IMG/VR virus record: IMGVR_UViG_3300047457_000359
Coordinates: 1-57,730 of that record
Strand: one strand, 5' to 3'
DNA: 57,730 bases
DNA from: a virus
Lineage: Duplodnaviria > Caudoviricetes
The stretch's first letter is position 1. Each line of letters starts with the position of its first letter. The notes below the pieces were generated by a model, which saw only the letters and a program-made list of their open reading frames with translations, ran no database searches and was not told the DNA's origin. The position numbers and the translations under genes are program-made. Below, in pieces: positions 1 through 57,730 of the stretch.

Positions 1-1
1 G

Positions 2-1000
2 TCTGGGATCTCCAAGTCTGCTACGCATCTGTTGATGATTACCAAAGATGCAGCAGACAGAGCAGGAGTGTTGAAGCACCCTGGTCATGCCGACCAGTCA
101 GTCCACGGAAATGGTGGAAAGAACAGCAGGGCTGGAGCAGCAAGTCTTGCTGGCAGAGCATCAGGAGAAGGCAGCAGAACAAGCGTTGGTGTAATGGATG
201 CTGATGGACGACCAGCACTTGTCAATGCCACTAGTACGCCTGTTCTCGGAGCAAACTTGCAGGTGGGTGACATGATTGACGGCATTGGCGGAACCACCGA
301 AATAGTTGGTTTTGGTGTCGGAGGTCCGTTCGGCAACAGCAAGACCATGACGACACGGCCTGTTCACATGAATGCAAGCAGCACAAAAGGGACTGGTCGT
401 GGTGAAACAAGAACCGACAGTGTGTCGCTAGATCACAACTACCGAGTGATCACAGACTTCGCCCCGTTCGGTGTGGAAAAGGCTGGGGATCCTGTCGTCA
501 AGCACCCAGGTCACGCAGATCAGTCGGTTCACGGCAATGGCGGAAAGAACAGTCGTTCGGGATCCGCAGGGGGTTCGGCTGGTGGTGGAGAAGGGGCAGC
601 CGCCAACAAAGAACTTGATCAAGCAGATTTGGCTGTTTCTGAACTGAAGTCGGAGATCAGGGGTCTGGTAGTTGCTGGCGATAGTCTCGGTGAATACGGT
701 GCCGTCAGGTCAATGGAGCGTGAGATCGTCTCGGCAACAGATCACCTTGGTAATGCACGGTCGGTGAACAACAGGACTGCAGCAGATGGGTTCACTCGGG
801 GTCACAACAAGGGTGTGCGCAACGACTACGCCGACAAAGCACTTGCAGATCTCCAAGGCATAGAAGACAGCCTGATGAGCGTCGTTCGGGGCACTGGTCG
901 TTTGCCGCAACAGGCGTCAACTATGAGCAGTGTCGCAAGGTCAAGGGCGTTGATTGACATGGCACGAACTGCCCTCAACGGAGTCAAAGGAGCACCGTGA
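2..1000 (+). CDS. 5'-truncated two-module protein with two KHPGHADQSVHGNGGKNS tags (putative head cargo polyprotein)
   Basis: The frame is open from position 2. Tags at 74-127 and 500-553 are each followed by a Gly/Ser linker and a different domain. Confidence 0.75.
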   Translation, partial: SGISKSATHLLMITKDAADRAGVLKHPGHADQSVHGNGGKNSRAGAASLAGRASGEGSRTSVGVMDADGRPALVNATSTPVLGANLQVGDMIDGIGGTTEIVGFGVGGPFGNSKTMTTRPVHMNASSTKGTGRGETRTDSVSLDHNYRVITDFAPFGVEKAGDPVVKHPGHADQSVHGNGGKNSRSGSAGGSAGGGEGAAANKELDQADLAVSELKSEIRGLVVAGDSLGEYGAVRSMEREIVSATDHLGNARSVNNRTAADGFTRGHNKGVRNDYADKALADLQGIEDSLMSVVRGTGRLPQQASTMSSVARSRALIDMARTALNGVKGAP

Positions 1001-1587
1001 AACTTTCAGACCAGATCATGCTCGCCAGGTTGCGCAAGTACACCAGGCTCACGGAAAGCCAGTGGTTAGCGTTGGAGGCAGAAGTCGTCAAAGCAGGCGG
1101 GATCCTCAAAGCAACAGGTACGGCACACGCAGAGTTGATGTATTGCGCTGGGGTTGCCAGGGCCGAAGTGTTGAAGCATCCAGGACACCCCGATCAGTCC
1201 GTTCATGGTAACGGCGGGAAGAACAGCAACCCCAAAGGAACCCCCGCAGGTGGCGGTGGTGGTGGTTTGACCCCAGAAGATGAAGAAATGTTCAGTCAGG
1301 CTGAAGCAGATCTTGCTGCTGACAGGCAAGCGATCAAGGACGACATTGCTTCAGGGGATCTTGACAAAGAAGACGCTGGTGAGTACTTGCAGGCAAACAA
1401 AGATGCTGCGCAGGCCGTAGCAGATCACAAGAAAGCCGTTAGCGAGTATCGCAAGAACCCATCGGAAGACAACGCCGACAAGGTCATGGAGATCGGTGAT
1501 TACACTGTCATTGACGGGGATCTCTATGGTGGTAGTAGCGTGATCCAAGACCTGTATCACGCAGCAGAAGACATGATTGGTGTGTAA
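997..1587 (+). CDS. Leader domain + KHPGH tag + acidic helical domain
   Basis: GTG start overlaps the upstream stop; GGAG RBS; tag begins at residue 60. Confidence 0.8.
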   Translation: MKLSDQIMLARLRKYTRLTESQWLALEAEVVKAGGILKATGTAHAELMYCAGVARAEVLKHPGHPDQSVHGNGGKNSNPKGTPAGGGGGGLTPEDEEMFSQAEADLAADRQAIKDDIASGDLDKEDAGEYLQANKDAAQAVADHKKAVSEYRKNPSEDNADKVMEIGDYTVIDGDLYGGSSVIQDLYHAAEDMIGV

Positions 1588-1787
1588 TGACGATCAGTAT
1601 TGAAGATCAGGAAGCCCTGTTTCTGTTGAAGCAGTTCACCAAGTTGTCGCCGTTGCAGTGGCAGATGGTTGAGATTGCTGTTGCCAAGGCGGGCGGGATC
1701 ACAAATGTCAAAGGTCATGTTCTGCAGGAGTTGCACTTCTGCGCTGAACGAGCAAGAAGCGACGCAAAGAAAGGTTTGCTTCGGTAA
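1587..1787 (+). CDS. Stand-alone leader-domain protein, paralog of the N-terminus of 997-1587
   Basis: DQ..L..L...T.L...QW...E..V.KAGGI....G....EL..CA..AR aligns without gaps; TAATG coupling on both sides. Confidence 0.8.
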   Translation: MTISIEDQEALFLLKQFTKLSPLQWQMVEIAVAKAGGITNVKGHVLQELHFCAERARSDAKKGLLR

Positions 1788-2185
1788 TGGAAGAATGGCT
1801 TCGGCAGCCCGTGTTCAAGCACCCAGGGCATGCTGATCAAAGTGTGCATGGAAACGGCGGTAAGAACTCGCCTCGTTTGACTGGCGGTAAGCCGAACCCT
1901 GACCACAAGCCACTGGGTGGGGATCTGAAGACACGGATCACGCCCAGCAAGGAGAACGAATCCCACCGCACGAGGATGACCTCGTACATGGAGGGGTTCC
2001 ACAAGAACTTGAAGAACCCAGCCGAGCGTGATTACGCAGCAGCCAGGGCAAAGCAGATGATCAACGGAGAGCGTCGTCCGTCTGGAATGTCCGCCCAGTT
2101 CGGGGTTGATAAAGGTAGGGTTAGGGCGTTGGAGATCGTGTTGTACAAGGTGTTCAAGGCAGGAAGGGCGAAGATCGGTGTCTAG
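1787..2185 (+). CDS. KHPGH tag + basic domain protein
   Basis: TAATG-coupled start; tag follows VFK. Confidence 0.8.
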   Translation: MEEWLRQPVFKHPGHADQSVHGNGGKNSPRLTGGKPNPDHKPLGGDLKTRITPSKENESHRTRMTSYMEGFHKNLKNPAERDYAAARAKQMINGERRPSGMSAQFGVDKGRVRALEIVLYKVFKAGRAKIGV

Positions 2186-2321
2186 TGAACCTGAAGTCCC
2201 AGATCTGACAGATGTTGAGTTGCGACAACTGCAGACAGAAGTAGATACGCAGTTCAAGCGGTTCGGGATCCCAAGTGATGATGAGTTGATGGCGGAGATT
2301 GATCGCCTCAACGCCGACTGA
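2178..2321 (+). CDS. Small acidic hypothetical protein
   Basis: GTG start overlapping the upstream gene; 47 aa, D/E-rich. Confidence 0.5.
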   Translation: MSSEPEVPDLTDVELRQLQTEVDTQFKRFGIPSDDELMAEIDRLNAD

Positions 2322-2326
2322 CGCAG

Positions 2327-2380
2327 TGTGACAAACTTCACATAACCCCACATTGACTTTCGCCGCAGGCTGATTACGGT
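2327..2380 (+). promoter_or_regulatory. CRP-like box + housekeeping-sigma promoter (copy 1)
   Basis: TGTGA-CAAACT-TCACA, TAACCCC, TTGACT-N16-TACGGT; downstream GGAAAGGAG RBS. Confidence 0.8.
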
Positions 2381-5051: not shown

Positions 5052-5342
5052 GTGAAGCGGTCAGACAGCACCCCAGGTAAGTTGACCAAGGTTGAGTACG
5101 AGCAGGGACAGATGCTTGTCGTGACCTGGTTGGACGCACACAACTTGGAGTGCGGTTGGCAAGACATGAAGGAAGTGAAGTTCTCCAAAGCCGAAGTGCA
5201 GACGGTCGGACACTTTGTTGCGGTAGCCCAAGAGCAACTGTGGCTAGCAGCAGATTGGTGCGAAGAAGACGACATGGTGAACACGGTCGTCGGGATCCCA
5301 CTAGGAATGGTTGTAACTGTGAGAGAGATTGACAATGGCTGA
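5052..5342 (+). CDS. Hypothetical phage protein
   Basis: VTWLDAH...TVGH...IPLGMV pattern; overlaps the portal start. Confidence 0.6.
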   Translation: MKRSDSTPGKLTKVEYEQGQMLVVTWLDAHNLECGWQDMKEVKFSKAEVQTVGHFVAVAQEQLWLAADWCEEDDMVNTVVGIPLGMVVTVREIDNG

Positions 5343-6831
5343 AGACAAGATCAAGTATGACGACTTTGCTGAGATCGGCACAGGCGGCCTGCGGCGCACG
5401 GGCGGCTTCATTATTGAGGAGTTCCTCACTGGTCTGCGATCACTGCAGGGAGCCAAGGCGTACAAGGAGATGTCCACCAACGATCCCGTTGTTGGTGCTT
5501 TGCTGTTCGCCATAGAGCAACTGATCCGCAACATTGATTGGAGAGTGGATCCGTTCACGGGATCCGAAGAAGAAGAGCAGACGCAGGCTGACAAGGATTT
5601 GGCTGAGTTCGTTGAGCAGTGTCGTCACGACATGTCGTCGTCTTGGGACACGATGATCTCGGACATTCTGTCCATGTTGGTGTACGGGTATGCGTTCTGT
5701 GAGATCGTGTACAAGAAGCGCATGGGCAACGACCAAGACGATCCGTCCAGGCGGTCGCAGTTCCGTGACAACAAGATCGGTTGGCGCAAGATCACGCTGA
5801 GAGCGCAAGAGACAACCTGGATGTGGATGCTTGACGAAAAGGGCGGGATCCAGGGAATGGTGCAAGTGGATCCGTCAACTGGCGGCAGGGGGGCGGTAGA
5901 GATCCCCATTGAAAAGGCGTTGTTGTTCCGCACAAGCAGTAGCCGAAATAACCCAGAAGGTCGCAGTTTGCTTCGCAATGCTTACCGACCCTGGAGGTTC
6001 AAGAAGACGATTGAAGAGATTGAAGCCGTCGGTATTGAACGGGATCTCGCAGGTCTGCCAGTGGCGTATGTGCCACCGCAGTTGCTGTCGGGCAACGCCA
6101 ACGAAGCAATGGTTGGTGCTCGTGATGCGATCCAGGAACTGGTGCGTGGGATCAAGCGCAACGAGAACGAGGGGATCCTGTTCCCGCTGTCGTATGACGA
6201 GAACGGGCGAGAGATGTACAAGTTGACCCTGTTGACCACTGGCGGCCAGCGTCAGTTTGACACTGACAAGGTTGTTTCACGGTACGACCAGCGGATTGCG
6301 ATGACCGTGTTGGCTGACTTCATTCTGTTGGGTCACGAGAATGTCGGTTCGTTTGCCCTCGGAGCATCCAAGATTGACCTGTTCACGACGGCGATCAGCC
6401 AGATCGCAAGAGAGATCTGCGAGGTGTTCAACTCGTATGCGATCCCAAGATTGTTGAAGTTGAACGGGATCAAGACAGACCGTATGCCCAAGTTGGCGTT
6501 CGGCCAGTTGACGCATGTTGACCTCGCACTGCTCGGCAACTTCATTCAGCAGGTTGCAGGTGCAGGTGCTCTTGTGGTGGACGCAGGGCTTGACGAGTAC
6601 CTTAGAACCACGGCAGGTTTGCCGCCCCGTGAGGAAGACGACGGGATCATGCCAGTGGGTGACAACCAGGCGAAGGTTGGTTCGGGAGACGATACGGGCG
6701 ACAAAGAGGACGGAGACGCTGCTCCTAAGAAGCCGCAGGCCGACAACAAGGAGACTGCCTCACCTACACCCAAGGACAAGAAGATAGAAGAAGCGATCAA
6801 GTCGCTGATGGAGAAATACGGCGATCAGTAG
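5335..6831 (+). CDS. Portal protein (DUF935/Mu gp29-like)
   Basis: About 500 aa; NNPEGRSLLRNAY.PW..KK...E..GIERDLAGLP; position before MuF and the protease. Confidence 0.85.
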   Translation: MAEDKIKYDDFAEIGTGGLRRTGGFIIEEFLTGLRSLQGAKAYKEMSTNDPVVGALLFAIEQLIRNIDWRVDPFTGSEEEEQTQADKDLAEFVEQCRHDMSSSWDTMISDILSMLVYGYAFCEIVYKKRMGNDQDDPSRRSQFRDNKIGWRKITLRAQETTWMWMLDEKGGIQGMVQVDPSTGGRGAVEIPIEKALLFRTSSSRNNPEGRSLLRNAYRPWRFKKTIEEIEAVGIERDLAGLPVAYVPPQLLSGNANEAMVGARDAIQELVRGIKRNENEGILFPLSYDENGREMYKLTLLTTGGQRQFDTDKVVSRYDQRIAMTVLADFILLGHENVGSFALGASKIDLFTTAISQIAREICEVFNSYAIPRLLKLNGIKTDRMPKLAFGQLTHVDLALLGNFIQQVAGAGALVVDAGLDEYLRTTAGLPPREEDDGIMPVGDNQAKVGSGDDTGDKEDGDAAPKKPQADNKETASPTPKDKKIEEAIKSLMEKYGDQ

Positions 6832-12111: not shown

Positions 12112-13089
12112 ATGGCACAGCCCACCCAGTACGCAGTTCACATTGATGCGATCCTGACGAACATCAGCGTCGCCTACATTCAGCAGACGGAGAACTTCGT
12201 TGCGACGAAGGTGTTCCCGATCGTTCCTGTTGACAAGCAGTCCAACAAGTTCTTCAAGTACACGAAGAACGACTGGTTCCGTGACGAGGCGCAAGTTCGT
12301 GCCGACGCCACTGAGTCGGCTGGTGGCGGCTACAACCTGTCAACCGATACCTACTCCGCACAGGTGTGGGCGTTCCACAAGGACATCGGTGACCAGACCC
12401 GTGCCAACGCAGACACCCCGATCAACCTTGATCGTGAGGCGACTGAGTTCGTGACGATGCGGATCATGCTCCGTCAGGAACTGGATTGGCAGAGCAAGTT
12501 CTTCACCACCTCTGTCTGGGGCAAGGACTACACGGGCGTGGCGGGATCACCGTCCACCGACGAGTTCAAGCAGTGGAGCGACTTTGCCAACAGTGATCCG
12601 CTGGAGGACATTGAAGCCGCCAAGGAACTGATCCTGCAGACGACTGGCTTCATGCCGAACACGCTGGTGCTCGGCTACCAGGTCTTCCGCAAGTTGAAGA
12701 ACCACCCCGATCTCGTTGACCGCATCAAGTACACGACCAGCAATGTCATCACTGAAGACATGATGGCGAAGATGTTCGGTGTGGATCGGGTCATGGTGAC
12801 CAAGTCCGTCAAGGCAACGAACAAGGAAGGCGCAACTGGTGCCTACGACTTCGTTCACGGCAAGGCTGCCCTCTTGTGCTACTCGGCACCGTCCGCTGGC
12901 CTGCTCCAGCCCTCCGCTGGCTACACCTTCGCATGGACTGGTGTGTCCAACGGCCTGGGTCAGACCATCGGCACCAGCCGCTTCCGCATGGAGAGCCTGA
13001 AGTCCGACCGCATTGAGGCCGAAGCCGCTTGGGACAACAAGGTTGTCGCTAGCGATCTTGGTGCGTTCTTCACAGCCGCTGTCGCCTGA
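12112..13089 (+). CDS. Major capsid protein
   Basis: 325 aa; D.ILTNISVAY...F.A.KVFP.VPV.KQS; PNTLVLG..VF..LKNHP; highly biased codons. Confidence 0.9.
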   Translation: MAQPTQYAVHIDAILTNISVAYIQQTENFVATKVFPIVPVDKQSNKFFKYTKNDWFRDEAQVRADATESAGGGYNLSTDTYSAQVWAFHKDIGDQTRANADTPINLDREATEFVTMRIMLRQELDWQSKFFTTSVWGKDYTGVAGSPSTDEFKQWSDFANSDPLEDIEAAKELILQTTGFMPNTLVLGYQVFRKLKNHPDLVDRIKYTTSNVITEDMMAKMFGVDRVMVTKSVKATNKEGATGAYDFVHGKAALLCYSAPSAGLLQPSAGYTFAWTGVSNGLGQTIGTSRFRMESLKSDRIEAEAAWDNKVVASDLGAFFTAAVA

Positions 13090-35581: not shown

Positions 35582-35582
35582 C

Positions 35583-43684: not shown

Positions 43685-43705
43685 TGGCTGGTATCGTAGG
43701 GATCA

Positions 43706-43987
43706 ATGAAAGTAACGATCTACTGGCCTGACTACACGATGACCAAAGCCGCCAACGCAACCGCTGCTTTGAAGATCATCGCTGAGAAGCAGTGGGAAGA
43801 ACAAGTTTCGGTTGAGCGAATGAAGGAGTTACTCGCTGGTAGGGCTTGGGGTTGGTGCAACGCCGTTGTGGATCCCAGCCTGCCCGATGAGGAGTTCCTG
43901 TCCGCACTTGGTGACACTGGTATGGTGTTCGTGTGGTTCGGGGAAGAAGATCCGTGGCGAGGCGTCGGTGAAGGAGGCTTGGCGTGA
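43706..43987 (+). CDS. Hypothetical protein
   Basis: 93-aa ORF. Confidence 0.55.
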   Translation: MKVTIYWPDYTMTKAANATAALKIIAEKQWEEQVSVERMKELLAGRAWGWCNAVVDPSLPDEEFLSALGDTGMVFVWFGEEDPWRGVGEGGLA

Positions 43988-44462: not shown

Positions 44463-44477
44463 AGTACAGTTGATGCA

Positions 44478-45695
44478 GTGAAAGACGACATTCTTGTTCA
44501 GGTGCAGACGGTGGGGATCAACACTGTCAGGGAGCATCCCGCCAATGTGAGGAAGGGGGATGTTGACCTAATCGCAGACAGTCTGGTGAACCACGGTCAA
44601 TACCGCCCGATCGTTGTCCAGCGATCAACGGGCTACATACTCGCTGGCAACCACACATGGAAAGCGGCTCGCAGGCTCGGTTGGAAGCAGATCGGCGTCA
44701 CCTACCTTGATGTTGACAATGAAACCGCAGCCAAGGTGATGTTGGCAGACAACCGCACATCGGACCTGGCGGTGTACAACGATGCACAGTTGTTGGAACT
44801 GTTGCACAGTTTGGAAGATTTGGCTGGCACGGGATTTGACGAGTTGGACCTTGATCGGTTGGAAGGTCTGTTTGATGAAGACGAAACCGAATCGGGATCA
44901 TCAGGTGGAACTGGTGGTGTCGGCAAGACCCAGTATGCCTTTGAGTTTGGACCGCTGCGTTTGGACATGCCAGCCCACATCGCAGACGCCTGGGAACAAA
45001 AGCAGAAGTTGGACAACCCGAAAGGGACACTCGCAGCGATCCGCAATCGCATTGACATGGCGGCACCCCCAAGGGAGATGACGGCACAGCCAGTCATTGA
45101 CGCCGCAGATTTGGCGGAGACGATACCCCTATCCGATCTCACGCTGTATCCGATGAACGCACGGCAGGGAGACATTGGTGCGATCTCGGAGTCGTTGCGA
45201 CTGTTCGGTCAGTATCGCCCGATTGTCGTAAACAGAAGAACGATGCACATTCTGGTCGGGAACCACACCGCTGCTGCCGCAAAGTCGTTGGGGTGGTCAA
45301 AGATTGCCGTCAGTTGGGTTGATGTGCCAGAGGATCAAGAAGCGAAGATCGTGCTGATAGACAACAGAAGCGCAGATGTTGCTATGTATGACGAAGATGG
45401 TCTGGCGACACTGTTGACCTCGTTGGGGAGTCTGATCGGAACGGGGTTTGATGGCGATGATTTGGATCAACTGTTGAGCGATGTCAGGAACGGGTATCGC
45501 AACAAGAAGCCAGCATCGCAAAGCAAGGTGAGGTGCAAGGCGGGATCCTGGGTGTGGAAACTGCCGTCAGCGCAGTTTGTTGACTGGGAAGCAAAGCACG
45601 GGACTGTTGAAAGTCCTGAGGGGATCAAGTTTCTGACCGAAGGGCTTCGTTTGACGGAAGGAACATGGACAGTGGTGGAGGACACCGATGAGTGA
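44478..45695 (+). CDS. Protein with two tandem ParB/Srx-like domains
   Basis: Twice P.N.R.GD...I..SL...GQYRPIVV.....IL.GNHT..AA..LGW...DNR..D. Confidence 0.85.
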   Translation: MKDDILVQVQTVGINTVREHPANVRKGDVDLIADSLVNHGQYRPIVVQRSTGYILAGNHTWKAARRLGWKQIGVTYLDVDNETAAKVMLADNRTSDLAVYNDAQLLELLHSLEDLAGTGFDELDLDRLEGLFDEDETESGSSGGTGGVGKTQYAFEFGPLRLDMPAHIADAWEQKQKLDNPKGTLAAIRNRIDMAAPPREMTAQPVIDAADLAETIPLSDLTLYPMNARQGDIGAISESLRLFGQYRPIVVNRRTMHILVGNHTAAAAKSLGWSKIAVSWVDVPEDQEAKIVLIDNRSADVAMYDEDGLATLLTSLGSLIGTGFDGDDLDQLLSDVRNGYRNKKPASQSKVRCKAGSWVWKLPSAQFVDWEAKHGTVESPEGIKFLTEGLRLTEGTWTVVEDTDE

Positions 45696-46380
45696 AATGC
45701 AAGTGGAAAGCCGCAGGCTTGACGAACTGACGATGGACGACAGAAACCCCCGAAAGGGAAATGTCGCAGCGATCATTGAAAGCCTGAAGGAGTTCGGCCA
45801 GCACAGGCCGATCGTTGTGCAGAAGGGGACGAACAGGATCATCGCTGGAAACCACATGTTCCAGGCGGCGCAGTCGTTGGGCTGGGAGACGATCCAGTGT
45901 GTCATTGTTGACGACGATGACGAGAAAGCGATCCGTCGTGGCATTGCCGACAACGCCACCAGCGACTTGGCTCGTTGGGATGATGACCAGTTGAAGGAAC
46001 TGTTGAACGAAGTCGGAACGGACATCGCAGGTGTGGATGACCAGTTGGTGAAGCGGCTGTTTGCGCAGATTGTCGCAGAGAACGACCCGATCTATCCGCT
46101 GGTTCCAAAGCCAGGCGAGAAGTACGACTATGTCGTTCTGTTTGCCGACAACGAGATTGACCACGGTTTCTTGATGACATTCTTCGGAGAAAAGGTGCTT
46201 GATTGGAAGACGCCAAGTCGCAGGGCGCAGCGATCACGCATCTTGCCAGTGTCGGTGTTGAGGCGGTTGATGCAAGAACACGGCCTGATCCCTGACACCG
46301 AAGCGGATCCACAGGTGGAGGCGGAGGACGCAACACCACCCACCCAGACCCCCAAGCCCAGCAGGGCTAAGAAGAAATAA
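45688..46380 (+). CDS. ParB/Srx-like domain protein
   Basis: NPRKGNV.AI.ESL.EFGQ.RPIVV...IIAGNH...ADN. Confidence 0.85.
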   Translation: MSEMQVESRRLDELTMDDRNPRKGNVAAIIESLKEFGQHRPIVVQKGTNRIIAGNHMFQAAQSLGWETIQCVIVDDDDEKAIRRGIADNATSDLARWDDDQLKELLNEVGTDIAGVDDQLVKRLFAQIVAENDPIYPLVPKPGEKYDYVVLFADNEIDHGFLMTFFGEKVLDWKTPSRRAQRSRILPVSVLRRLMQEHGLIPDTEADPQVEAEDATPPTQTPKPSRAKKK

Positions 46381-46391
46381 GAAGACGCTTT

Positions 46392-47153
46392 ATGGAAGTG
46401 AACATCGTGATCCCGAGTATGGGACGGGCTGGAGCGTTGCAGGCGCACAAGGCTGTGTCGGGCGACAGATTGACGCTGTGCGTCCCAGACGCCGAAGTGG
46501 AGGCGTACCGCAAGGCGCACCCTGACATACAGGTGGTTGGTCACCCCGACAGCGTGGTGGGACTGTCGCAGAAGCGTCAGTGGATCTACGACTATTGGGG
46601 CGATGTGATCATGATTGACGACGACTGTGATGCGATCCTGCACCTGGAACACGGTTTGGGCAACAAGCCCTGCGTGTTGACCCCAGAAGAAGGGGTGGAA
46701 CTGTGCGACCGTCTGGCTGGTGAAGCACGGGACATGAATGTGTACCTGTTCGGCGTTTCGTCCTCGGTGGACATTCGCAACTATGTTGCAGTGATGCCGT
46801 TCCGCACGGTTGGTTGGGTGAACGGTGGTTTCACGGGACTGCTTCGGGGATCCAAGTTGTCCTACCACCCGAAGATCATGTGCTCCGAAGACTTCTGGAT
46901 TTCGGCGTTGAACGCATACCACCACCGCAAGGTGTGGGTTGATACCAGGTACGCATTGCGTGATGCCAACGGTTCGGGAACGATGAAGACTCCTGGTGGA
47001 ATGGCGTTTATCCGCAGCCTGGAGAACGAAAAGCGTGACAACGAAATCCTGGCGCAGCATTTCGGAGACGCAATCAAACCCCGCCCGAAGAAGGCGGCTG
47101 GTAGAGTCAAGGCGATCCACGAGTTTCAGCGTTCGTTGACGATCCCGTGGTAG
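46392..47153 (+). CDS. GT-A fold glycosyltransferase (TET-associated/GREB1-like)
   Basis: IVIPS.GR, E...Y, KRQWI, MIDDD, ED, GG motifs. Confidence 0.7.
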   Translation: MEVNIVIPSMGRAGALQAHKAVSGDRLTLCVPDAEVEAYRKAHPDIQVVGHPDSVVGLSQKRQWIYDYWGDVIMIDDDCDAILHLEHGLGNKPCVLTPEEGVELCDRLAGEARDMNVYLFGVSSSVDIRNYVAVMPFRTVGWVNGGFTGLLRGSKLSYHPKIMCSEDFWISALNAYHHRKVWVDTRYALRDANGSGTMKTPGGMAFIRSLENEKRDNEILAQHFGDAIKPRPKKAAGRVKAIHEFQRSLTIPW

Positions 47154-47161
47154 GAGGAAAG

Positions 47162-47779
47162 ATGACAAACCTTGATGAGTTCTATGCGGAAGCAATCGGG
47201 AAGGCTGTTGAACCGTGGCAGTTGAATGACTACGGATCGGAGCGATCACAGAAGCGGCGGTTCCGAGTGGCGGCTGATGCCCTGGGGATCCGTTCGGGAG
47301 ACACGGTTGTTGATGTCGGGTGCGGAAGCGGCGAGTTGCGTCGGTATCTCTGGGCCGAAGGCATTGATGTGGAGTACATCGGCTATGACGCAGTTCCCGC
47401 AATGGTGGAACTGGCGCAGCGTTACGGCGAAAAGAATGTGATGTTGCTGGACGCACTGGAGAAGGGGATCACTATGTGCGAGCATGTTGTGTGCCTCGGC
47501 GTTCTCGGTGTTATGGAAGGAACTGAAGAAGAGCGCATGGCGAAGTTCAGCAGGTTGTTCAGCAATCTGTGCGACCACGCTCAGGTTGGCGTTGCCGTGA
47601 CGGTGCAGATGTACCGTGAGGGACTGGACAAGTCGGGTCTGCGTTGGTACATGGAGGAAGACCAGGTAGCGCAAGCCTTGATGATGCTTCGTCGGGATCA
47701 CCCCGACTTCGGATGGCAGTTGCGGATGGACTACCACCCTCACGACGCAATGTTCGTCGGCCTGTTCCGATCTTTCTGA
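47162..47779 (+). CDS. Class I SAM-dependent methyltransferase
   Basis: SQ..RF, VVDVGCGSG, YIGYD; no DPPY/NPPY motif. Confidence 0.8.
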   Translation: MTNLDEFYAEAIGKAVEPWQLNDYGSERSQKRRFRVAADALGIRSGDTVVDVGCGSGELRRYLWAEGIDVEYIGYDAVPAMVELAQRYGEKNVMLLDALEKGITMCEHVVCLGVLGVMEGTEEERMAKFSRLFSNLCDHAQVGVAVTVQMYREGLDKSGLRWYMEEDQVAQALMMLRRDHPDFGWQLRMDYHPHDAMFVGLFRSF

Positions 47780-47823
47780 AAACACGCCCAACCCTGGTGT
47801 AGTTGGGTGCTACTGTTTCATGT

Positions 47824-48456
47824 ATGGCAAGCAATAACCCGTGGTACAGCCAGCCAACCGTCAGGGGATACTCCAACCCCGAGGTTGCGTCTGCGCTGCA
47901 AAAAGCAATCAGAAGAGGACAAGTTGACAAGGCTGTGTTCTGGGCAATAGAACTGGACAGGTCGGGCTACGCACAGTATGTGTGGAAGCGTCTGCTAGTG
48001 ATCACAAGCGAGGATGTCGGTCCAGCAGAGCGGCACCTGCCCGCAACCATCTGGGCGTTGTACCAGACCTGGCGTGAGATGAACAGTTGGCGGAACGGGA
48101 ACCACCCCGAGCGGTTGCCCTTTGTTCACGCTGTGATCCTGTTGGCTTCGGCACAGAAGTCCAGGATGTGCGATCACGCAGCCTGTGGCGGCTACAACAC
48201 CAACGAAGCCCTGTTTGAGATCCCAGACGAGGCGTATGACCTCCACACCCTCAAAGGTCGCAGACTCGGCAGGGGTTTGGAGCACTGGTATGCGGAAGCA
48301 GCCAAGTTGGAGAACCCAGCCGATCTCGGGTTTGACCCGTTCGTTGAGTGGAACGCCAAGGCAGACGAGTTCAAGGGCGAGCCGTTGGTCCGCAAGGCGG
48401 GACGGACGGTCGGGGCGGTTGACGAAACTCCCCCAGCCGAACAGTTGTTTGACTAG
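47824..48456 (+). CDS. Stand-alone MgsA/RarA C-terminal-like helical domain protein
   Basis: SALQKAIRRG...A.FWA.EL...WKRL..I.SEDVG, IPD.A.D.HT..G; no Walker A. Confidence 0.65.
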   Translation: MASNNPWYSQPTVRGYSNPEVASALQKAIRRGQVDKAVFWAIELDRSGYAQYVWKRLLVITSEDVGPAERHLPATIWALYQTWREMNSWRNGNHPERLPFVHAVILLASAQKSRMCDHAACGGYNTNEALFEIPDEAYDLHTLKGRRLGRGLEHWYAEAAKLENPADLGFDPFVEWNAKADEFKGEPLVRKAGRTVGAVDETPPAEQLFD

Positions 48457-49151
48457 GTGAACAAGTCCGCCAGCCCCTGCCGACCCAGGTGAGCGTAGGC
48501 GTCCCACCAAGACAAGTTCGGTTGGAACTGTTTGAAGACCTGTTTGTAAGGAGGACAGGTCCAGTTCTGCGGGATCACTTGGATGTCGGCGTCAGCCCAC
48601 TGTTGGGGATCAAGGTAGTCCAGGCTCGGCGCACCGCAGATGTAGGTGTCGGCATCAGCCTCTTGACACAGTTCTAGCATCCAGTCGCCCTTGGTCGCTT
48701 GGGACTGGAAAGATGTGTCCAAGTAGACCTTGTGGTGGCACCCGATCATGTAGGCAGCCATGATGGTTGAAGTGGTGTTGAGATCCCCCAGCGAGTCGGT
48801 GTTGATGAACTCCTTGACCTCGGCAAGCATGTCCTCAAAGTAGGGTGCTTTGGCGTAGGAGTGAGTCAAGGTAGCCAGGAACTGTTGTCGCCAGTCCCCC
48901 TGGGCGAGAAGCGTGTCTTTGATTGGTTGCCTCTTGTTGGCGACAGGAACTGTTAGCCAGTGTGGACCGTTGGGGGATCCGACCAGGGCGTGTTGTTGTC
49001 CAGTCTTCTTGCCTTCGGTGTACCCAGTTGGCTTGTTCTTCGGAGTAAACTGGGCTGTAGTCAGAATGACGATGTGGTCGGCTTGCCGCATGCGATCCAA
49101 AAGGTGTAGTTGGGCAGCGACTGGTGGTTGAAACGCAGTCAGGATCGCCAC
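48453..49151 (-). CDS. WbqC-like family protein
   Basis: A.QP, WLTVPV, Y.KAPYF, C....ADTYI.G....YLD, Y.Q....F.PNLS..D. Confidence 0.8.
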   Translation of the reverse strand: MAILTAFQPPVAAQLHLLDRMRQADHIVILTTAQFTPKNKPTGYTEGKKTGQQHALVGSPNGPHWLTVPVANKRQPIKDTLLAQGDWRQQFLATLTHSYAKAPYFEDMLAEVKEFINTDSLGDLNTTSTIMAAYMIGCHHKVYLDTSFQSQATKGDWMLELCQEADADTYICGAPSLDYLDPQQWADADIQVIPQNWTCPPYKQVFKQFQPNLSWWDAYAHLGRQGLADLFT

Positions 49152-49789
49152 AGACGCACCTCGTAAGCCTCTGCATACTGTGTGCCTGCTTGTGCGCCAC
49201 GCATGGTAGCCAGGCTGTGTAGGGCATGGTACGAGCGTTCTGATGGGGACGGGCGGTCCTGGGACTGGTGAGCCTTCATGGCGGAAGTCTTGTCGGCCAG
49301 CATGTCGCCCGACAGTTCCACAAACCAGTTGACCCTGGGACTGTCGCCAGTAAGCGACCAGTAGTCGGGGATCTCCTCGTAGCAGGCGATTAGGTCGGGA
49401 CGGTGACGACCAGTGGATCCCGATGGGCGTGTAGCCGCAAGTACGGCGTTGGCGGTAGCCCTGTGTTCTTGGTGGAAGGACATGGGACTGGGCATGACGA
49501 GGGCGGTGGGACGGATCTCGTCCAGGATGTTCTCCATCGGCCTGACTAGATCAACAAGGGGGCGGTCGTCTAGCCAGCGGGTTGGGAACTGGGTGAGGAT
49601 CCTGAGATCCGCCCCACCAAGCATGTCAACTGCGGTTGCGAGTTCCGAAGCCCTGGTGTCGTTCGGACAGGTGACGCACACAACGGTGACTTTGCCCCCC
49701 TGTCTGTTGACCTTTGAGATCAGTCCGCCCGCTCCGATGGTTTCGTCGTCTGGGTGGGGGGCGACGACCATCAGGTTGTTGATTAGCAT
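49139..49789 (-). CDS. PIG-L/LmbE family deacetylase
   Basis: VVAPHPDDE.IG.GG, R..E, HQEH, K..AM.AH.SQ, AEAY. Confidence 0.85.
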   Translation of the reverse strand: MLINNLMVVAPHPDDETIGAGGLISKVNRQGGKVTVVCVTCPNDTRASELATAVDMLGGADLRILTQFPTRWLDDRPLVDLVRPMENILDEIRPTALVMPSPMSFHQEHRATANAVLAATRPSGSTGRHRPDLIACYEEIPDYWSLTGDSPRVNWFVELSGDMLADKTSAMKAHQSQDRPSPSERSYHALHSLATMRGAQAGTQYAEAYEVRLWRS

Positions 49790-49968
49790 GATGACAGCAT
49801 ACAACACCGTGAGGTGCATGTTGGTGTGCTAGAACGATCTGTACGCACAACGGAGGTTTAGGTGGACAAGCCTGAATGCAAGCACAGGTTCAACGGTCCT
49901 GCGATCAAGGGCTGGCGGCTGTGTGTCAAGTGTTGTGCGGTCATTGAAGCAAGCAATAGGAGCAAGCA

Positions 49969-51475: not shown

Positions 51476-53080
51476 ATGTCGGCAACGCTGGTTAGGAGCA
51501 TCTTGGCGGCAAGTCAGGAGCAGCGGTTGGCGATCTACGCCCGCATGTCCCCTGAAGAACGGCAGTATGTGGACGGCCTGTTGGCGCAGCAGTTGGACAA
51601 CCCCTGGAGGAAGTACCGCACCGATCCTGTGAGGTTTGTGGAAGAAGGACTGCAGGAGACGCTCTGGTCAAAGCAGCGTGAAATCCTGGCGTCCGTCAGG
51701 GATCACAAACGCACGGTTGTGCCAGCGTGTCACGCCCCAGGCAAATCGCACATCGCAGCCCGAGCGATCGCCTGGTGGGTGTCCAGCCACGAAATCGGCA
51801 CTGCAATGGCGGTGTCCACGGCAAGCACCTTCCGCCAAGTCAGGAACATTCTCTGGCCGCACATTCGCAGAGTCGCTGTACGCCATAACCTGCCTGGAGA
51901 AGTAATGCAGGTGGAATGGCGGATCGGCACCGAACTGGTGTCCTACGGCTTTGCCAGCAACTCCGACGAAGCGGCAGTTCAGGGGATCCACGCACCGAAC
52001 CTGTTGATTGTCGTTGACGAAGCAGGCGGTGTACACGACACGGTTGGTCGTGCCCTGGAAGCCCTGATGACGGGCGGCAACACCCGCATGTTGTTGATCG
52101 GCAACCCGCCGACAGAATCGGAGGACTCCTGGTTTGAGAGGTGCTGTGGGTCGCCCTTGTACAATGTGATCCCGATCTCGGCGTATGACACGCCGAACTT
52201 CACTGGTGAAGAAGCAGGCGAATGCAAGGCTTGCCCACCCGCTGTAGCCCCCCACTCGGTCACGGAGCATTTAGTTGACCAGACTTGGGTTGACGATGTG
52301 ATCTCGGAGTTTGGTGTTGAGTCGCCCTTCGTTGAAGCCCGTGTTCTCGCCAAGTTCCCCCGTTCGGGCGGCAGCCGAGTGATCCCCTTGGGGTGGGTTG
52401 AGTCGGCAATGCAGAACGAAGATCCTGAAGGCGGCGAAACGATCCGTCTCGGAGTAGATGTGGCGTCGGACGGTGGTGATGAGTTCGTGATCGCTTGGGC
52501 GGACGGTTTCAAGGTGTCCATCAAGCACAACTCGTCGGGCGAAAAGAACGAGAACGCCATTGATGTCACCAAGCGACTGTTGGATGTAGTCCTGGAAGCA
52601 GAGTCGGTACACGCTGCCAGGGGGATCGGGGATCCCGTCAGGGTCAAGATTGACGAAATCGGTCTGGGTTGGGCCGTTGTGTCCCTGTTGAAGCGGTGGG
52701 GCGAAGAAGGCAAGCACAAGTCCGTGATCATTGGGGTGAATGTGTCCGAGCGAGCGAGGCAGGGCGACAAGTTCACGAACCAGCGAGCAGAACTTTGGTG
52801 GAATGGGCGTCTAGCCTGCCAGTACGACAGCATGGGTAGACAGCAGGTCAAGTTGAACATTGACCGCAGGACTATGGCGCAGTTGGCAGCCCCGTCCTAC
52901 AAGGCTGACAGCCAGGGTCGGATCATGATTGAAAAGAAGCAAGACATGAAGAAGCGGGGAGTCACCTCGCCAGACAGGGCCGAAGCAGTGCTGTTGGCTT
53001 TGTATGAGCCACCAGGTGCAGGTCCGATTGAGCCAGTCGCTCCGCTTGCGATCACCCAGACCAACCCTTGGAAGTTCTGA
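51476..53080 (+). CDS. terL: Terminase large subunit
   Basis: Q motif, HAPGKS (Walker A), IVVDEA (Walker B), IGNP, LGVDVA, SPDRAEA. Confidence 0.92.
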   Translation: MSATLVRSILAASQEQRLAIYARMSPEERQYVDGLLAQQLDNPWRKYRTDPVRFVEEGLQETLWSKQREILASVRDHKRTVVPACHAPGKSHIAARAIAWWVSSHEIGTAMAVSTASTFRQVRNILWPHIRRVAVRHNLPGEVMQVEWRIGTELVSYGFASNSDEAAVQGIHAPNLLIVVDEAGGVHDTVGRALEALMTGGNTRMLLIGNPPTESEDSWFERCCGSPLYNVIPISAYDTPNFTGEEAGECKACPPAVAPHSVTEHLVDQTWVDDVISEFGVESPFVEARVLAKFPRSGGSRVIPLGWVESAMQNEDPEGGETIRLGVDVASDGGDEFVIAWADGFKVSIKHNSSGEKNENAIDVTKRLLDVVLEAESVHAARGIGDPVRVKIDEIGLGWAVVSLLKRWGEEGKHKSVIIGVNVSERARQGDKFTNQRAELWWNGRLACQYDSMGRQQVKLNIDRRTMAQLAAPSYKADSQGRIMIEKKQDMKKRGVTSPDRAEAVLLALYEPPGAGPIEPVAPLAITQTNPWKF

Positions 53081-53130
53081 TTTGCGTGGTGCAGTCGGTT
53101 CTGCTATCGGACCTTGATTTGCGTGGTGCA
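53078..53130 (+). repeat. 16-bp perfect direct repeat
   Basis: TGATTTGCGTGGTGCA at 53078-53093 and 53115-53130. Confidence 0.9.
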
Positions 53131-53340
53131 ATGGGACATGCTACGCACCAAGACGCTGGTGGAGTAGGCGAACAACTGTTCGTTGTGATCTAGAACGCAC
53201 GGAGCAGAACGGACGAACGGATTGTTTGGGCTACCTGTACCCACATTTGTCAAGTCAGCAGTTCCTAGACGAACGGAGCAAGAAGTTTAGGACGCTAAAC
53301 AAACGGTTTAGGCGTATGCAGCATCGGTGTAGAACGCTAG

Positions 53341-53394
53341 TGTGACTTATTTCACATAACCCCCCTGTACCTGGAGAATGTTGGCAGATACGCT
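53341..53394 (+). promoter_or_regulatory. CRP-like box + promoter (copy 5)
   Basis: TGTGA-CTTATT-TCACA, TAACCCC, TACGCT -10; AAGGAGG RBS. Confidence 0.75.
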
Positions 53395-53417
53395 TTCGGG
53401 GTAGGGAAGGAGGTGAA

Positions 53418-53681
53418 ATGAGCAAGCAGAAGAAATCGGAGGAGCGTCTGGCTTACGAAGCAGCAGTTGCCCTGCTGGAGCCTTGTCCGCAAGCAGTCAA
53501 GTCGGCAAGCGGATGCAAGGTGTCCTGGAGGTGGTACGCCACTATGGAGGAAGCCCAGATCGCAGCCCAGTGGGCGTATCACCAGGCAGTGTGGTACGAC
53601 AGCATGGGCTACGACTTCGGGTACCAGTGCCCAGGGTCGGTCGCCAAGGACGGCGAGTTGTTCAAGGTGACCTTCCCGTAA
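53418..53681 (+). CDS. Hypothetical protein, paralog A
   Basis: SGCKV.W...EA.IAA.WA...GYDFG...PG...VTFP. Confidence 0.7.
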   Translation: MSKQKKSEERLAYEAAVALLEPCPQAVKSASGCKVSWRWYATMEEAQIAAQWAYHQAVWYDSMGYDFGYQCPGSVAKDGELFKVTFP

Positions 53682-53730
53682 GGGGAGGTCGCAGTGATCC
53701 ATCGGAACGCAAGACAGAAAGGAGAAGGTC

Positions 53731-53856
53731 ATGCAACTAGCAGTGTTGTTCCCAGACGGGACGAAGGCACCGATCGCAGAAGATCAGGTGATCAAGTACA
53801 ACCTGACAGTCGGGCAGTTGACACCGTTCAGCCGCCTGCCCATCGTTGAGGCGTAA
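53731..53856 (+). CDS. Very small hypothetical protein
   Basis: GAAAGGAG RBS; 41 aa, read by hand. Confidence 0.5.
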   Translation: MQLAVLFPDGTKAPIAEDQVIKYNLTVGQLTPFSRLPIVEA

Positions 53857-53901
53857 GGGCCGCAGCGATCACGAACAAGCAAGCAAGACCCAGGAAAGGG
53901 G

Positions 53902-54156
53902 GTGAAAGCAGTGACCAAGCAGATGACATACTGGCAGGGCATGAACGAAGGAGTTCCCCAGCCAATCTCGTACATGTCGGGGTGCAAGGTCGCTTGGTAC
54001 ACATTCCGCACCGTCAAGGAGGCGGAGATTGCAGCCAAGTGGGCACGGTCGGAGGCAGCCAGGAAGGAGGCACTCGGCTATGACTTCGGCTGGTGTACGC
54101 CAGGCGAGATCAGCAAGAATCACAAGAAGAGGCGGTACACGGTGACCTTCCCCTAG
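53902..54156 (+). CDS. Hypothetical protein, paralog B
   Basis: Same motifs as 53418-53681. Confidence 0.7.
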   Translation: MKAVTKQMTYWQGMNEGVPQPISYMSGCKVAWYTFRTVKEAEIAAKWARSEAARKEALGYDFGWCTPGEISKNHKKRRYTVTFP

Positions 54157-54177
54157 GTCACAGTCGCCAGCGATCAC

Positions 54178-54206
54178 TTGACCATAGTGATCACAGAAGT
54201 TACGGT
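54178..54206 (+). promoter_or_regulatory. Promoter without upstream CRP-like box
   Basis: TTGACC-N17-TACGGT; the -35 lies inside the inverted repeat GATCACT/AGTGATC. A similar TTGACC-N17-TACGCT is at 54558-54586. Confidence 0.6.
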
Positions 54207-54229
54207 TCGCCGTGAGGAAAGGAAAGGCA

Positions 54230-54544
54230 ATGGAGGAGACAGAGCGGTTGAAGTGTCCGCAGTGCGAGAAGGTGTTCGTTTTCGCAAGCGACGCTGAAGA
54301 AGAGTGGGAGAAGCACTGGGTTCCAGAGGAAGGGCTGTGTGCTTCCTGCTCGGAGTACAACGCAACGCACTGCCGATACTGCGGCAAAGCCCCCAGCGAG
54401 GGCAACGCTCGGTACACGGGAGATGGTTGGTACGCCACCTGGACCGAGTGCAAGGACTGCGGCGACGAAGTTCACGGGGCGGAAGAGATGGATCGTTGGG
54501 TGACCAGGTGGTTGGCGGGGGGTCGCAGTGGCTTCTGGGACTAG
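54230..54544 (+). CDS. Multi-CxxC zinc-finger protein
   Basis: Four CxxC pairs; strong RBS. Confidence 0.65.
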   Translation: MEETERLKCPQCEKVFVFASDAEEEWEKHWVPEEGLCASCSEYNATHCRYCGKAPSEGNARYTGDGWYATWTECKDCGDEVHGAEEMDRWVTRWLAGGRSGFWD

Positions 54545-54605
54545 CAGTGATCTCGGCTTGACCAAGGTGTAGTTGTTGGTTACGCTGAAACGGAGGGAAG
54601 AAACG

Positions 54606-54773
54606 ATGAAGTACCAAGTAGTTGTCAAGGCGCAGATGCAAGACGGAACGATCAAGGACAAGGTGATCGGCCAGTACGACAACATGACAGACGCCGTGGC
54701 GGCAAAGATCAGAGCCTGGGTGATGAGTGAAGATCCGAAAGAAACGATCACCGTCAAGGAGTTGGTCGCATGA
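54606..54773 (+). CDS. Small hypothetical protein
   Basis: Own promoter and GGAGG RBS. Confidence 0.55.
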   Translation: MKYQVVVKAQMQDGTIKDKVIGQYDNMTDAVAAKIRAWVMSEDPKETITVKELVA

Positions 54774-54903
54774 TGGCGTACAGCCACCGCAGGAGTCGGG
54801 GATCACGCTCGGCTACCTGCATACCCGATCTTGCACACAGGTGTGTGCTAGAACCGTCGTATCGCTACGGCGGTCAAGACAAGCAAGACAAGGAGAACCA
54901 GAA

Positions 54904-56043: not shown

Positions 56044-56114
56044 CGCTCGGAGACGCAGTACGGAGAAGGCCGTAGTTGAAACGGTGACAGGTTCGGGTAC
56101 CTGTATCCCAGGGT

Positions 56115-56405
56115 TTAGCCCCCGATGACTAAGACATGCAGAACCGCAGTCGTAGTCTTTGCGATCCCGTAGAACTTGTCCTTCCAGGTGTACTCGCCCG
56201 ACAGAGTGTATGACTCGTCGGCGTCCAAGTGGATCCCGAAGTTGGTGTTTGTCACGCCAGGGCCGCCGATCATCGCCACATCGTTGTTCTGCTTGTCTGT
56301 ATTGAAGATGATGGTCACCCCCCGACGCTGGCTCTCGGTGTCGTTCAGCCCGACCAGTTCCTGAGCAGTAGTGGTGAGGTTGAATGTGTAGTGACGGACA
56401 GCCAT
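56115..56405 (-). CDS. Small beta-rich protein, possibly a virion component
   Basis: Lone minus-strand ORF; IGGPGVT..NFG..L pattern; start refined to 56405. Confidence 0.6.
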   Translation of the reverse strand: MAVRHYTFNLTTTAQELVGLNDTESQRRGVTIIFNTDKQNNDVAMIGGPGVTNTNFGIHLDADESYTLSGEYTWKDKFYGIAKTTTAVLHVLVIGG

Positions 56406-56520
56406 GTACGCAAAGTAGCACACGGGATCATAAGCAGCCATTGACGCAGCACGGAGAAGGCCGCAGGCGTTCATCAAGAAAGGTCGCCTACCTGTACCCC
56501 AGGATCCTGTATTGGTGCAG

Positions 56521-56574
56521 TGTGACCTACTTCACATAACCCCCCCTTGACTTATGTCGCAAGTTGATTACGGT
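56521..56574 (+). promoter_or_regulatory. CRP-like box + promoter (copy 6)
   Basis: TGTGA-CCTACT-TCACA, TAACCCC, TTGACT-N16-TACGGT; GGAAAGGAG RBS. Confidence 0.8.
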
Positions 56575-56605
56575 CGTCTCCGTGATCAAGGGAAAGGAGT
56601 CACAG

Positions 56606-57345
56606 TTGAAGTTGGAAATGGAGGAGTTGTTCCAGCGAGCAGCCCTCGCAGGAGTCCAGGCGGGAGACACCGTTTGCGTGGATGGCAAGGAAGTCGTTGC
56701 CAAGCATGTGCTGTTCTACGGCGATGGAAGCATTGAAGTCGGCTACCTGTCGGAGTCGGGCGAGTTCCACTACGGATGGTTCAAGAAGGGAGAGGAAGTT
56801 GTCGCAGTCTGAGGAGTTGGACCTGGTCAAGAAGGTCCAGACCACATGCCCACTGTGCGGTGAGCGCACCGTCGGTTGGGACTTTGTGATCATTGGCTAC
56901 TGGAGTCCAGAGGAAGTCTGGTACGGAGCCTGTGGATGCAAGATCTACGGGTTTGAGGAAGGACTCGCAGCACTGGGGATCCCCAAGGAGGAATGGTGTC
57001 AGTACTGACGGAGCATTGCGAGGGCATGCAGGGCTTTGAAGGCTGGTACCTGCTGGAAGTCGGATTGACCCCAGTTGTGTACAGCAAGAACAAGCAGTTC
57101 GTGGAAATGATCGCTGCGCACAAGCGTCAGCAGGGAGAGCAAGTGTTGGTCGTGTTCAAGGAGGCGGCGTGAGCAAGATGAAAGAAGCCCTGTACCAAGC
57201 CCAGGAAGACAAGGCGGTGTTGGCACCGTTGTGGGCGGAGATGGCACGGGATCAGTTGGACAAGTTGATGGCGGAAGGTGTGCCAGTCCAGGAAGCAGTC
57301 GGGATCATCAAGTTGTACATCAAGCAGTTGGTGAACCCCGTTTAG
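56606..57345 (+). CDS. Four small overlapping hypothetical genes (56606-56812, 56799-57008, 56993-57172, 57169-57345)
   Basis: RBS and overlap pattern; partly read by hand. Confidence 0.5.
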
Positions 57346-57385
57346 ATCGTTCAGCCACCAGGCTGGAGGAAAGGAAAGAAAGACA

Positions 57386-57730
57386 ATGAAGGCAGTGGAT
57401 TTGGCGGAGGCATTCGTCAAGATGATGGAGGAAGGCACGGAACCGCAGGAAGCGCAGTTGTTCGGACTGTCCCCCGATGGGTTCGTACCGATCGCCAAGA
57501 GCGAGGATGTGTACGGCCTGCTGGACATGACGATCATGGTCAAGTACGAAGGACTCGGCTTGTTGACCACTGGTTGGGCCGCACCGCTTGACGAGAACGG
57601 CGAGGTGGACGGGATCCCCAGCCAGCACCCTGGTCGCAAGCGAGTGATCCTGTTCTCCTGCTACAAGAAGGGCAGCGAGCACCCCGAAGTGCTAGACAAG
57701 GGATCGTGCTTGAAGTTTGGGGATCAGGAG
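57386..57730 (+). CDS. 3'-truncated hypothetical protein
   Basis: Strong RBS; TTGWAAPL...PSQHP.R.RV.L; frame open to the window end. Confidence 0.65.
   Translation, partial: MKAVDLAEAFVKMMEEGTEPQEAQLFGLSPDGFVPIAKSEDVYGLLDMTIMVKYEGLGLLTTGWAAPLDENGEVDGIPSQHPGRKRVILFSCYKKGSEHPEVLDKGSCLKFGDQE

Follow-up and report, generated by a model that had tools for sequence, protein, structure and literature searches.

Polar words such as Chi and KOPS inform moving enzymes of their direction and of the ownership of the DNA, and the few that are known come mostly from cultured model bacteria. KOPS/SRS, the architecture imparting sequences of FtsK/SpoIIIE, are polar, G-rich and strand-skewed 8-mers whose wrong orientation is selected against. 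Orientation is also biased in phage T7, all of whose EcoP15I (Type III) sites point one way, and the cluster K mycobacteriophages carry about a dozen or more copies of a start-associated sequence just upstream of start codons. Chi is over-represented in phages that lack RecBCD inhibitors, recombinase-encoding ones included, as stated in part of Bobay et al. (2013, PMC3784561), and HIP1 (GCGATCGC), a highly iterated cyanobacterial palindrome, has been tied to orphan methylases in a section of PMC4390886. The sequence considered here is the entire virus record IMGVR_UViG_3300047457_000359 of IMG/VR (57,730 bases, hereafter the window), the genome of a tailed phage in which the hexamer GGGATC is found on one strand far more often than expected. 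The observations set out below define this signal as DNA-level, polar and lineage-specific, and as tied neither to GATC methylation nor to the glycosyltransferase cluster that the phage encodes.

GGGATC occurs 178 times on the plus strand of the genome and its complement GATCCC 51 times, against expectations of 22.1 from base composition, 17.6 from a first-order Markov model and 31.7 from a second-order one. It ranks first in the genome for hexamer over-representation (z about 21), and GATC is the top over-represented tetramer (678 copies versus 213 expected). A preliminary description of this DNA had listed nine copies in the first 2.3 kb, all of which are present (at 5, 486 rather than 487, 559, 1099, 1355, 1517, 1695, 1920 and 2265), and had rightly judged the density to be similar throughout, since copies are found in every 3-kb bin, at about 3.1 per kb. 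The genes, for which crude codon-usage calls were made for this analysis (81 genes, 78 of them on the plus strand, covering 88% of the DNA), contain 152 copies. Synonymous shuffling within each gene leaves 31.3 ± 4.9 (maximum 46, n = 300), shuffling of codon order leaves 18.5 ± 4.5, and a Markov-chain synonymous shuffle that bars the nine palindromic tetramers absent from this genome leaves 34.2 ± 4.9 (maximum 45, n = 40), so that the disappearance envisaged in the preliminary description under codon and dipeptide control is not seen. In non-coding DNA the excess is about 10-fold (25 copies versus 2.49 ± 1.67 in 500 shuffles, maximum 9). The word is found in all three frames of the plus-strand genes (70, 38 and 40 copies), in 25 intergenic or gene-edge positions and 5 times in minus-strand genes, as had been claimed for all frames and intergenic DNA. 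Gly-Ile pairs are spelled GGG-ATC in 70 of 95 cases, where codon usage predicts 11.5, and 148 of the 279 synonymously possible sites (53%) are in use.

The further claim that the word stands just before several start codons does not amount to a pattern, because only 5 of 173 copies end 1–15 nt upstream of one of the 78 called plus-strand starts. This count discards a start-associated element: the sequence of the cluster K mycobacteriophages is likewise a conserved GGGAT-containing word that recurs, as here, in an actinophage-like genome, but it is start-adjacent. Pairing of the Shine-Dalgarno/anti-Shine-Dalgarno type was also rejected, since the sites are not near starts and GTGATC, which should pair best, is enriched only 2.0-fold, versus 4.8-fold for GGGATC.

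Those ratios of observed to expected counts come from the synonymous shuffle, under which GCGATC reaches 2.7 and GAGATC 1.6. The flanking bases matter as well: a C or G is preferred before GGGATC and any base but G after it, so that C/GGGGATC reaches 6.5–6.7 whereas AGGGATC stands at 1.3 and GGGATCG at 0.8. The refined motif is SGGGATCH, with 139 copies on the top strand versus 25 on the bottom strand. When GATC sites are sorted by the strand that bears a G at position −2, those with this G on the top strand only are enriched 2.71-fold, those with it on the bottom strand only 1.29-fold, and those with it on neither strand, which serve as background, 1.27-fold. As the bottom-only class equals the background, selection acts on the top strand only, and the strand bias that had been called apparent is real. 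The excess of GGATCC (94 copies) and of GATC overall can mostly be put down to the top-strand word. The motif strand is the sense strand of the terminase-to-portal-to-tail genes, and its orientation is kept genome-wide, with no flip.

The copies are spaced more evenly than at random (coefficient of variation 0.81), and gaps below 60 bp make up 4.5% versus 16.8% expected. Use of the possible sites depends on the distance to the nearest other copy, being 12/56 when it lies within 60 bp, 19/47 at 60–100 bp and 84/118 at 150 bp or more (Fisher p = 6e-10, below 60 bp versus at least 150 bp). Trivial overlap is ruled out because the 30–60 bp class alone shows use of 4/29. Downstream of the large terminase gene lies the longest motif-free stretch, 52635..54798 on the plus strand, where the copies at 52629 and 54799 are 2170 bp apart. 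The dependence on distance argues for selection on coverage and against any site-independent process, such as mutational drive or codon preference. It could be argued that the word has no function and that its excess follows from codon or dipeptide usage, from the tetramer purge described below, or from a mutational or repair drive of the very-short-patch kind. The amino-acid sequence does contribute a little (31 copies in the synonymous shuffle versus 18.5 in the codon-order shuffle), and avoidance of AGCT partly explains some other enriched words. All three shuffles contradict such an origin, however, among them the one in which protein, codon usage and forbidden tetramers are all preserved; a site-by-site drive would not give distance-dependent use; and the non-coding excess also stands against it, so that this explanation is hardly credible. 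A DNA-level signal under positive selection, as proposed in the preliminary description, is supported by the codon-aware nulls, the non-coding excess, the share of possible sites in use and its dependence on distance. Among the 40 differences listed of the 426 that contigs from four lake runs show over bases 1–20000, none falls in a motif copy, where about 0.8 would be expected, too small a number to bear on site conservation.

Relatives were found with the portal gene (5329..6831, plus strand) and the major capsid gene (12112..13089, plus strand), and comprised 20 portal-found loci, 40 capsid-found loci and nine longer contigs fetched whole. A GGGATC excess was seen in none of these sampled relatives, many of which carry a polar word of their own. 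One group uses ATGCGA, with top/bottom counts of 128/10 in G002, 68/2 in G001, 49/7 in G003 and 63/10 in G008, and the same word appears in many short contigs. A second group, G007 and L005-L011, uses TGCTGA followed by A or T (TGCTGAW; 97/2 in G007 and 30/0 in L011). Synonymous shuffles give 8 ATGCGA versus 58 observed in G001 and 18–19 TGCTGA versus 80 in G007, and the possible sites in use amount to 50–64% for ATGCGA and 29% for TGCTGA. The relatives' words obey the same spacing rule, with 0/17 and 0/11 possible sites used below 60 bp and 66/91 and 54/68 at 150 bp or more. The reverse orientation falls below shuffle expectation in G007 (1 versus 12.8 ± 3.3) and G001 (2 versus 7.9 ± 2.5), and not in G008. 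The relatives G004, G005, G009 and G010, which bear Gam, have weaker words around GAGTT; an origin of GAGTTG/TGAGTT as by-products of AGCT avoidance was rejected, as these words persist under the constrained shuffle. Arthrobacter phages Kovu and Laroye show neither the motif nor a comparable word (best z about 8–9 versus 21 here).

Since 78 of the 81 genes lie on the motif strand, DNA polarity and RNA polarity are inseparable in this genome alone. This arrangement would also suit an RNA-level signal in sense transcripts, for example a factor site that stabilises or anti-terminates long polycistronic RNAs, and in the three minus-strand genes both orientations are heavily used (5/5 possible sites on the top strand and 4/5 on the sense strand). 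Within the two of them at 48453..49819 the plus strand keeps four copies, as had been pointed out before, with 4/4 possible sites used on that strand and 2/3 on the sense strand. The relatives separate the two polarities. In the minus-strand genes of G007, 6/13 top-strand sites are used versus 0/14 on the sense strand, and in those of G002 5/14 versus 2/11; in the plus-strand genes the corresponding top- and bottom-strand figures are 78/273 and 1/224 for G007, and 93/147 and 4/124 for G002. PHROG matches support the largest minus-strand gene of G007 and all four of those tested in G002. As the word keeps its DNA strand inside reverse genes of both phages, polarity belongs to the DNA strand and not to transcription; together with the presence of the word in every frame and in non-coding DNA, and its lack of relation to start codons, this makes a role in RNA very unlikely. 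A region of G002 with reverse-oriented genes (13050-20900 in L068, 8 kb) contains 6 ATGCGA versus about 21 at genome density; it holds tRNA-methyltransferase-like and DNA-methyltransferase-like PHROG matches and may be a recent acquisition.

The same genome shows selection of the opposite sign on other short words. Nine of the 16 palindromic tetramers are at zero (AATT, ACGT, AGCT, ATAT, CCGG, CGCG, TATA, TCGA and TTAA, with 131–347 expected each), CTAG, GCGC and GGCC are depleted 3–5-fold, and CATG, GTAC and TGCA stand close to their expected counts. For a genome of 57.7 kb, restriction-site avoidance on this scale is extreme. Because the counts of other words might be skewed by it, the null that bars the forbidden tetramers was used; under it GAACTG falls from 2.9-fold to 1.6-fold, and this word and CAGTTG are enriched partly through AGCT avoidance. 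Hexamers that are absent although at least 12 copies are expected include GGTCTC/GAGACC, GCACGC/GCGTGC, CTTGAG/CTCAAG, CCATGG, GTGCAC, TGGCCA, GGCGCC, GGGCCC, AGGCCT and AGCGCT, an indication that other sites, 6-bp and Type IIS-like, may be avoided too. The purge is family-wide, AGCT being absent or nearly so in most capsid-found loci, and the purged set varies by lineage. GATC itself is at zero in the closest sampled relatives, L023-L030 and L033 (capsid 84–86% identical; 0 versus 81 expected in L023). Over a wider range of capsid identity (71–86%) the relatives with no GATC are L023-L030, L033, L036-L040, L044, L047, L060 and L061, set beside the 678 copies of this phage. Palindromes can also be enriched, as CTCGAG is in G007 (L081-L083; 60 versus 14.7) and GCCGGC in L059 (103 versus 22 in a zero-order model and 96 versus 42.7 in the shuffle). 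One genome thus has nine tetramers purged and a GATC-containing word pushed toward saturation, and the core of that word is purged to zero in its closest sampled relatives.

The preliminary description had offered three meanings for the word, namely a target of the phage modification cluster, a site that collects a host self-mark in a GATC context, and a polar recombination or packaging motif; the third fits best, and the first two have lost support. The cluster in question (41854..48456, plus strand) encodes an amidoligase, a class-II glutamine amidotransferase, two ParB_N proteins, a small class-I S-adenosylmethionine (SAM) methyltransferase, an MgsA_C-like protein and, at 46392-47153 on the same strand, a TET-associated glycosyltransferase (TAGT). 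Divergent from it are two minus-strand genes for WbqC-like and PIG-L deacetylase-like proteins (48453..49819), and the whole of 41854-49819 looks, from its predicted proteins, like a DNA base hypermodification pathway. It has been considered that one strand of the motif could be where a DNA modification is placed, either by this amidoligase/ParB/glycosyltransferase cluster or as a host self-mark, with sites spread for coverage. The phage is under extreme restriction pressure, as the nine absent tetramers show, selection on coverage would yield the even spacing, and the ATGCGA phage G002 has amidoligase, amidotransferase and ParB genes too, at 35–42% identity. However, a single strand of a palindromic core is selected, neither a DNA methylase nor an evident sequence-specific DNA enzyme was found in the 47 open reading frames scanned against Pfam and PHROG, and a total purge of nine tetramers is less expected given a protective modification. 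For the known host self-marks (BREX, Type I/III and Dnd/Ssp), moreover, additional target sites are a liability and not a benefit.

The comparison with relatives points the same way. TAGT homologues are missing from all five relatives searched, two of them complete, and these carry polar words, so the motif phenomenon does not need TAGT and does not track the ParB-glycosyltransferase cluster as had been suggested it might. No homologue of the cluster-associated SAM methyltransferase, MgsA_C, WbqC or PIG-L proteins was found among the 11 relatives compared, whereas homologues of the two ParB_N proteins occur in 6 of the 11. Modification of the motif is therefore considered unlikely. Plain methylation of GATC was rejected outright, since one strand only is selected and the DNA methylase families PF02086 (Dam-type, D12), PF01555 (N6/N4) and PF00145 (C5) gave no match at E<=0.1; that no Dam-type methylase is visible had been noted before. 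As the relatives' words ATGCGA and TGCTGAW do not contain GATC, this tetramer is itself incidental. HIP1 resembles the present word in being hyper-abundant, GATC-containing and spread throughout coding DNA, but it is palindromic and methylase-linked, whereas the present word is asymmetric and one-stranded, with no methylase found and with relatives' words free of GATC.

The model proposed here casts SGGGATCH as a Chi-like signal of 'self-mimicry', polar and acting at DNA level, which would tame a host helicase-nuclease; it is given a probability of roughly 0.35. The motif would be read on the 3'-ending strand by a host enzyme of the RecBCD, AddAB or AdnAB type, which would enter where the concatemer, during replication or packaging, offers a free double-strand end, and would then travel against the packaging direction. 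Each correctly oriented site would switch the enzyme from degradation to a harmless or recombination-promoting mode, and selection would have written the word wherever coding allows. Related phages on other hosts would bear other words, each host enzyme reading its own. By analogy with lambda, the motif strand may be the one whose 3' end is exposed at the packaging-cut end or in a rolling-circle tail. The packaging direction is probably 5' to 3' along the motif strand, as set by the small terminase gene (50953-51399, encoding a helix-turn-helix protein) and the large terminase gene (51476-53080), both on the plus strand; the host nuclease as reader, this direction and the benefit to the phage are all inferred.

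Several features support a Chi-like signal. The top word is short, asymmetric and G-rich, nearly all its copies are on the strand read 5' to 3' from the terminase towards the head and tail genes, and in relatives its counterparts keep to the DNA strand whatever the gene direction. The words are lineage-specific, which makes a host-borne reader the easiest explanation, since after a host shift sites could be gained one by one, while a phage-borne reader that changed its specificity would presumably lose all of them at once. A Mu-Gam homologue (PF07352) is absent from this complete genome and was not found in the four ATGCGA contigs (59–81% complete); it occurs in six relatives, and five of the six examined have weak polar words only, which has been counted in favour of the Chi reading. 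Compared with the Chi-enriched phages LLS, P1 and Pseudomonas MD8, as described in parts of PMC3784561 and PMC12315714, the likeness extends to a short asymmetric G-rich word that is the commonest of its length, to its packaging-oriented strand, independence of codons and host-group specificity, and, for this genome at least, to the lack of a Gam-type protein.

A second set of observations weighs against a Chi-like function. At 3.1 per kb the word is about six-fold denser than Chi in the Chi-rich phages LLS and P1, where a site is met every 1.9 kb (about 0.5 per kb), and its copies are even genome-wide and not clustered near one end. A Chi of modest recognition probability fails to predict the exclusion seen below about 60–100 bp, although near-certain recognition would predict it. 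The counter-selection of the reverse orientation in G007 and G001 (and not in G008) is not predicted by Chi biology either. G007 combines Gam with a strong word, which breaks any strict dichotomy of Gam or motif. A RecE-like exonuclease is encoded here (34634-35581, plus strand), whereas the Chi-rich lambdoids described in part of Zheng et al. (PMC12315714) have no Rec modules. If the host is actinobacterial, it also matters that no Chi is known for the actinobacterial AdnAB, which may be Chi-independent according to a portion of PMC5314763. Finally, nothing telling emerged when 401 genomes of one actinobacterial class, that of one Actinomycetota metagenome-assembled genome (MAG), were scanned for the word. 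SGGGATCH occurs in them at roughly 50–1000 per Mb on both strands together, as compared with 2400 per Mb on one strand in the phage; the unpublished genomes in the scan (G274, G384, G018, G047, G041, G054, G043, G035, G026 and G315) enter into this overall range only, and the sole outlier, G284, is an ordinary TCGA-rich genome of 69% GC. A search of the capsid protein against 185,579 species genomes matched only three MAG contigs (Actinomycetota, Saccharibacteria and Acidobacteria), all of them probably binned phage pieces.

Some of these objections turn into support for a reader carried by the phage. The motif could be the polar site at which a directional DNA machine or clamp of the phage itself acts, either the terminase, whose small subunit would use it for loading or orientation along the concatemer, or one of the ParB-like proteins whose genes neighbour the terminase genes, in the manner of KOPS or of dispersed parS or pac sites. 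The word runs along the inferred packaging direction genome-wide; copies in the reverse orientation are selected against in G007 and G001, as if a wrongly oriented site misdirected a motor; and the exclusion zone of about 60–100 bp resembles a protein footprint, these last two features being a better fit to a footprint-forming, direction-sensitive phage machine than to Chi. ParB_N homologues are present in the relatives at the frequency given above, and in Kovu and Laroye several ParB-like genes directly precede the terminase genes. Those two phages, however, have ParB genes yet no comparable word, a switch to a new word would demand simultaneous change in the reader and in over 100 sites, and we know of no packaging motor or ParB that reads a dispersed 6–8-mer. 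Such a machine is thus possible but rather doubtful. KOPS/SRS share with the present word its polarity, G-richness and strand skew and the disfavour of reverse copies; they differ in being chromosomal, flipping at origin and terminus and being far sparser, and no FtsK-like gene was seen in this genome. The EcoP15I bias of T7 is also that of an asymmetric, nearly one-stranded site in a phage under heavy restriction pressure, but removal of one orientation gives neither a 5- to 8-fold excess nor even spacing. Evasion of Type III/ISP restriction by orientation was rejected on this ground, since the retained orientation is not neutral. A site for a phage primase was set aside as well, because the 47 open reading frames scanned yielded neither a primase nor a polymerase. 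The probability that these readings leave over goes to something not yet imagined.

The remaining gene content is that of a tailed phage, with portal, MuF/protease-like, major capsid, tape-measure and terminase genes recognised in profile scans; a ferritin-like gene lies among the head genes (9903-10334) and a gamma-glutamyl cyclotransferase-like gene close to the left end (3721-4236). The replication and DNA genes comprise, besides the RecE-like exonuclease and a SNF2/HARP helicase, a replication initiator with a helix-turn-helix (36237-36938) and a G39P-like helicase loader (36935-37495), both on the plus strand, and between exonuclease and initiator an uncharacterised protein of 201 residues is encoded on the same strand (within 34634..37495). 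Having its own initiator and helicase loader but neither polymerase nor primase among the frames scanned, the phage relies on the DNA machinery of its host, which counts in favour of the Chi-like reading; a search for tRNA genes found none in the genome. The sense strand has a strong purine and G excess (G 32.2%, C 24.0%), the closest sampled relatives having about 26% G and 27% C. In contigs from other lakes two places are joined, 1249-1267 and 14801-15173, and TGGAACTG / GGAACTG is strongly enriched (23 versus 2.4). Gly-Thr-Gly-type repeats common to two structural genes, which either recombine or mislead assemblers, would be in keeping with this. No near-identical phage gave a megablast match among 50,697 phage records, and the closest cultured relatives are Arthrobacter phages (portal identity 51–54%). 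Near-identical DNA is present in freshwater and lake-water runs from several studies, which marks this as a natural, widespread and uncultured freshwater phage, and 4518 homologues of its capsid protein were found in metagenomes.

Chi enrichment in phages is already known. The combination of near-saturating density, a spacing rule of about 100 bp, differing words in close relatives and a nine-tetramer purge alongside is apparently new, in that open-access keyword searches, which are no proof of being unpublished, found no description of the pattern. It is tentatively suggested, as something that may well prove otherwise, that an abundant freshwater phage family carries an undescribed, genome-wide and near-saturating 'polar word code', in which a lineage-specific 6–8-mer, its copies kept apart from each other, is written on one DNA strand and read either by a directional machine of the phage (linked to packaging or ParB) or by a helicase-nuclease of the host. 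In the first case the word would be a new type of packaging or protection signal. In the second, these phages would supply candidate control sequences for hosts that resist cultivation so far, the finding would bear on whether actinobacterial end-resection enzymes have a Chi, a question raised in part of PMC5314763, and, should the hosts be Actinobacteria, SGGGATCH, ATGCGA and TGCTGAW would give that phylum its first candidate Chi sequences. Under either reading, if true, comparative phage genomics could reveal the control words of uncultured hosts.

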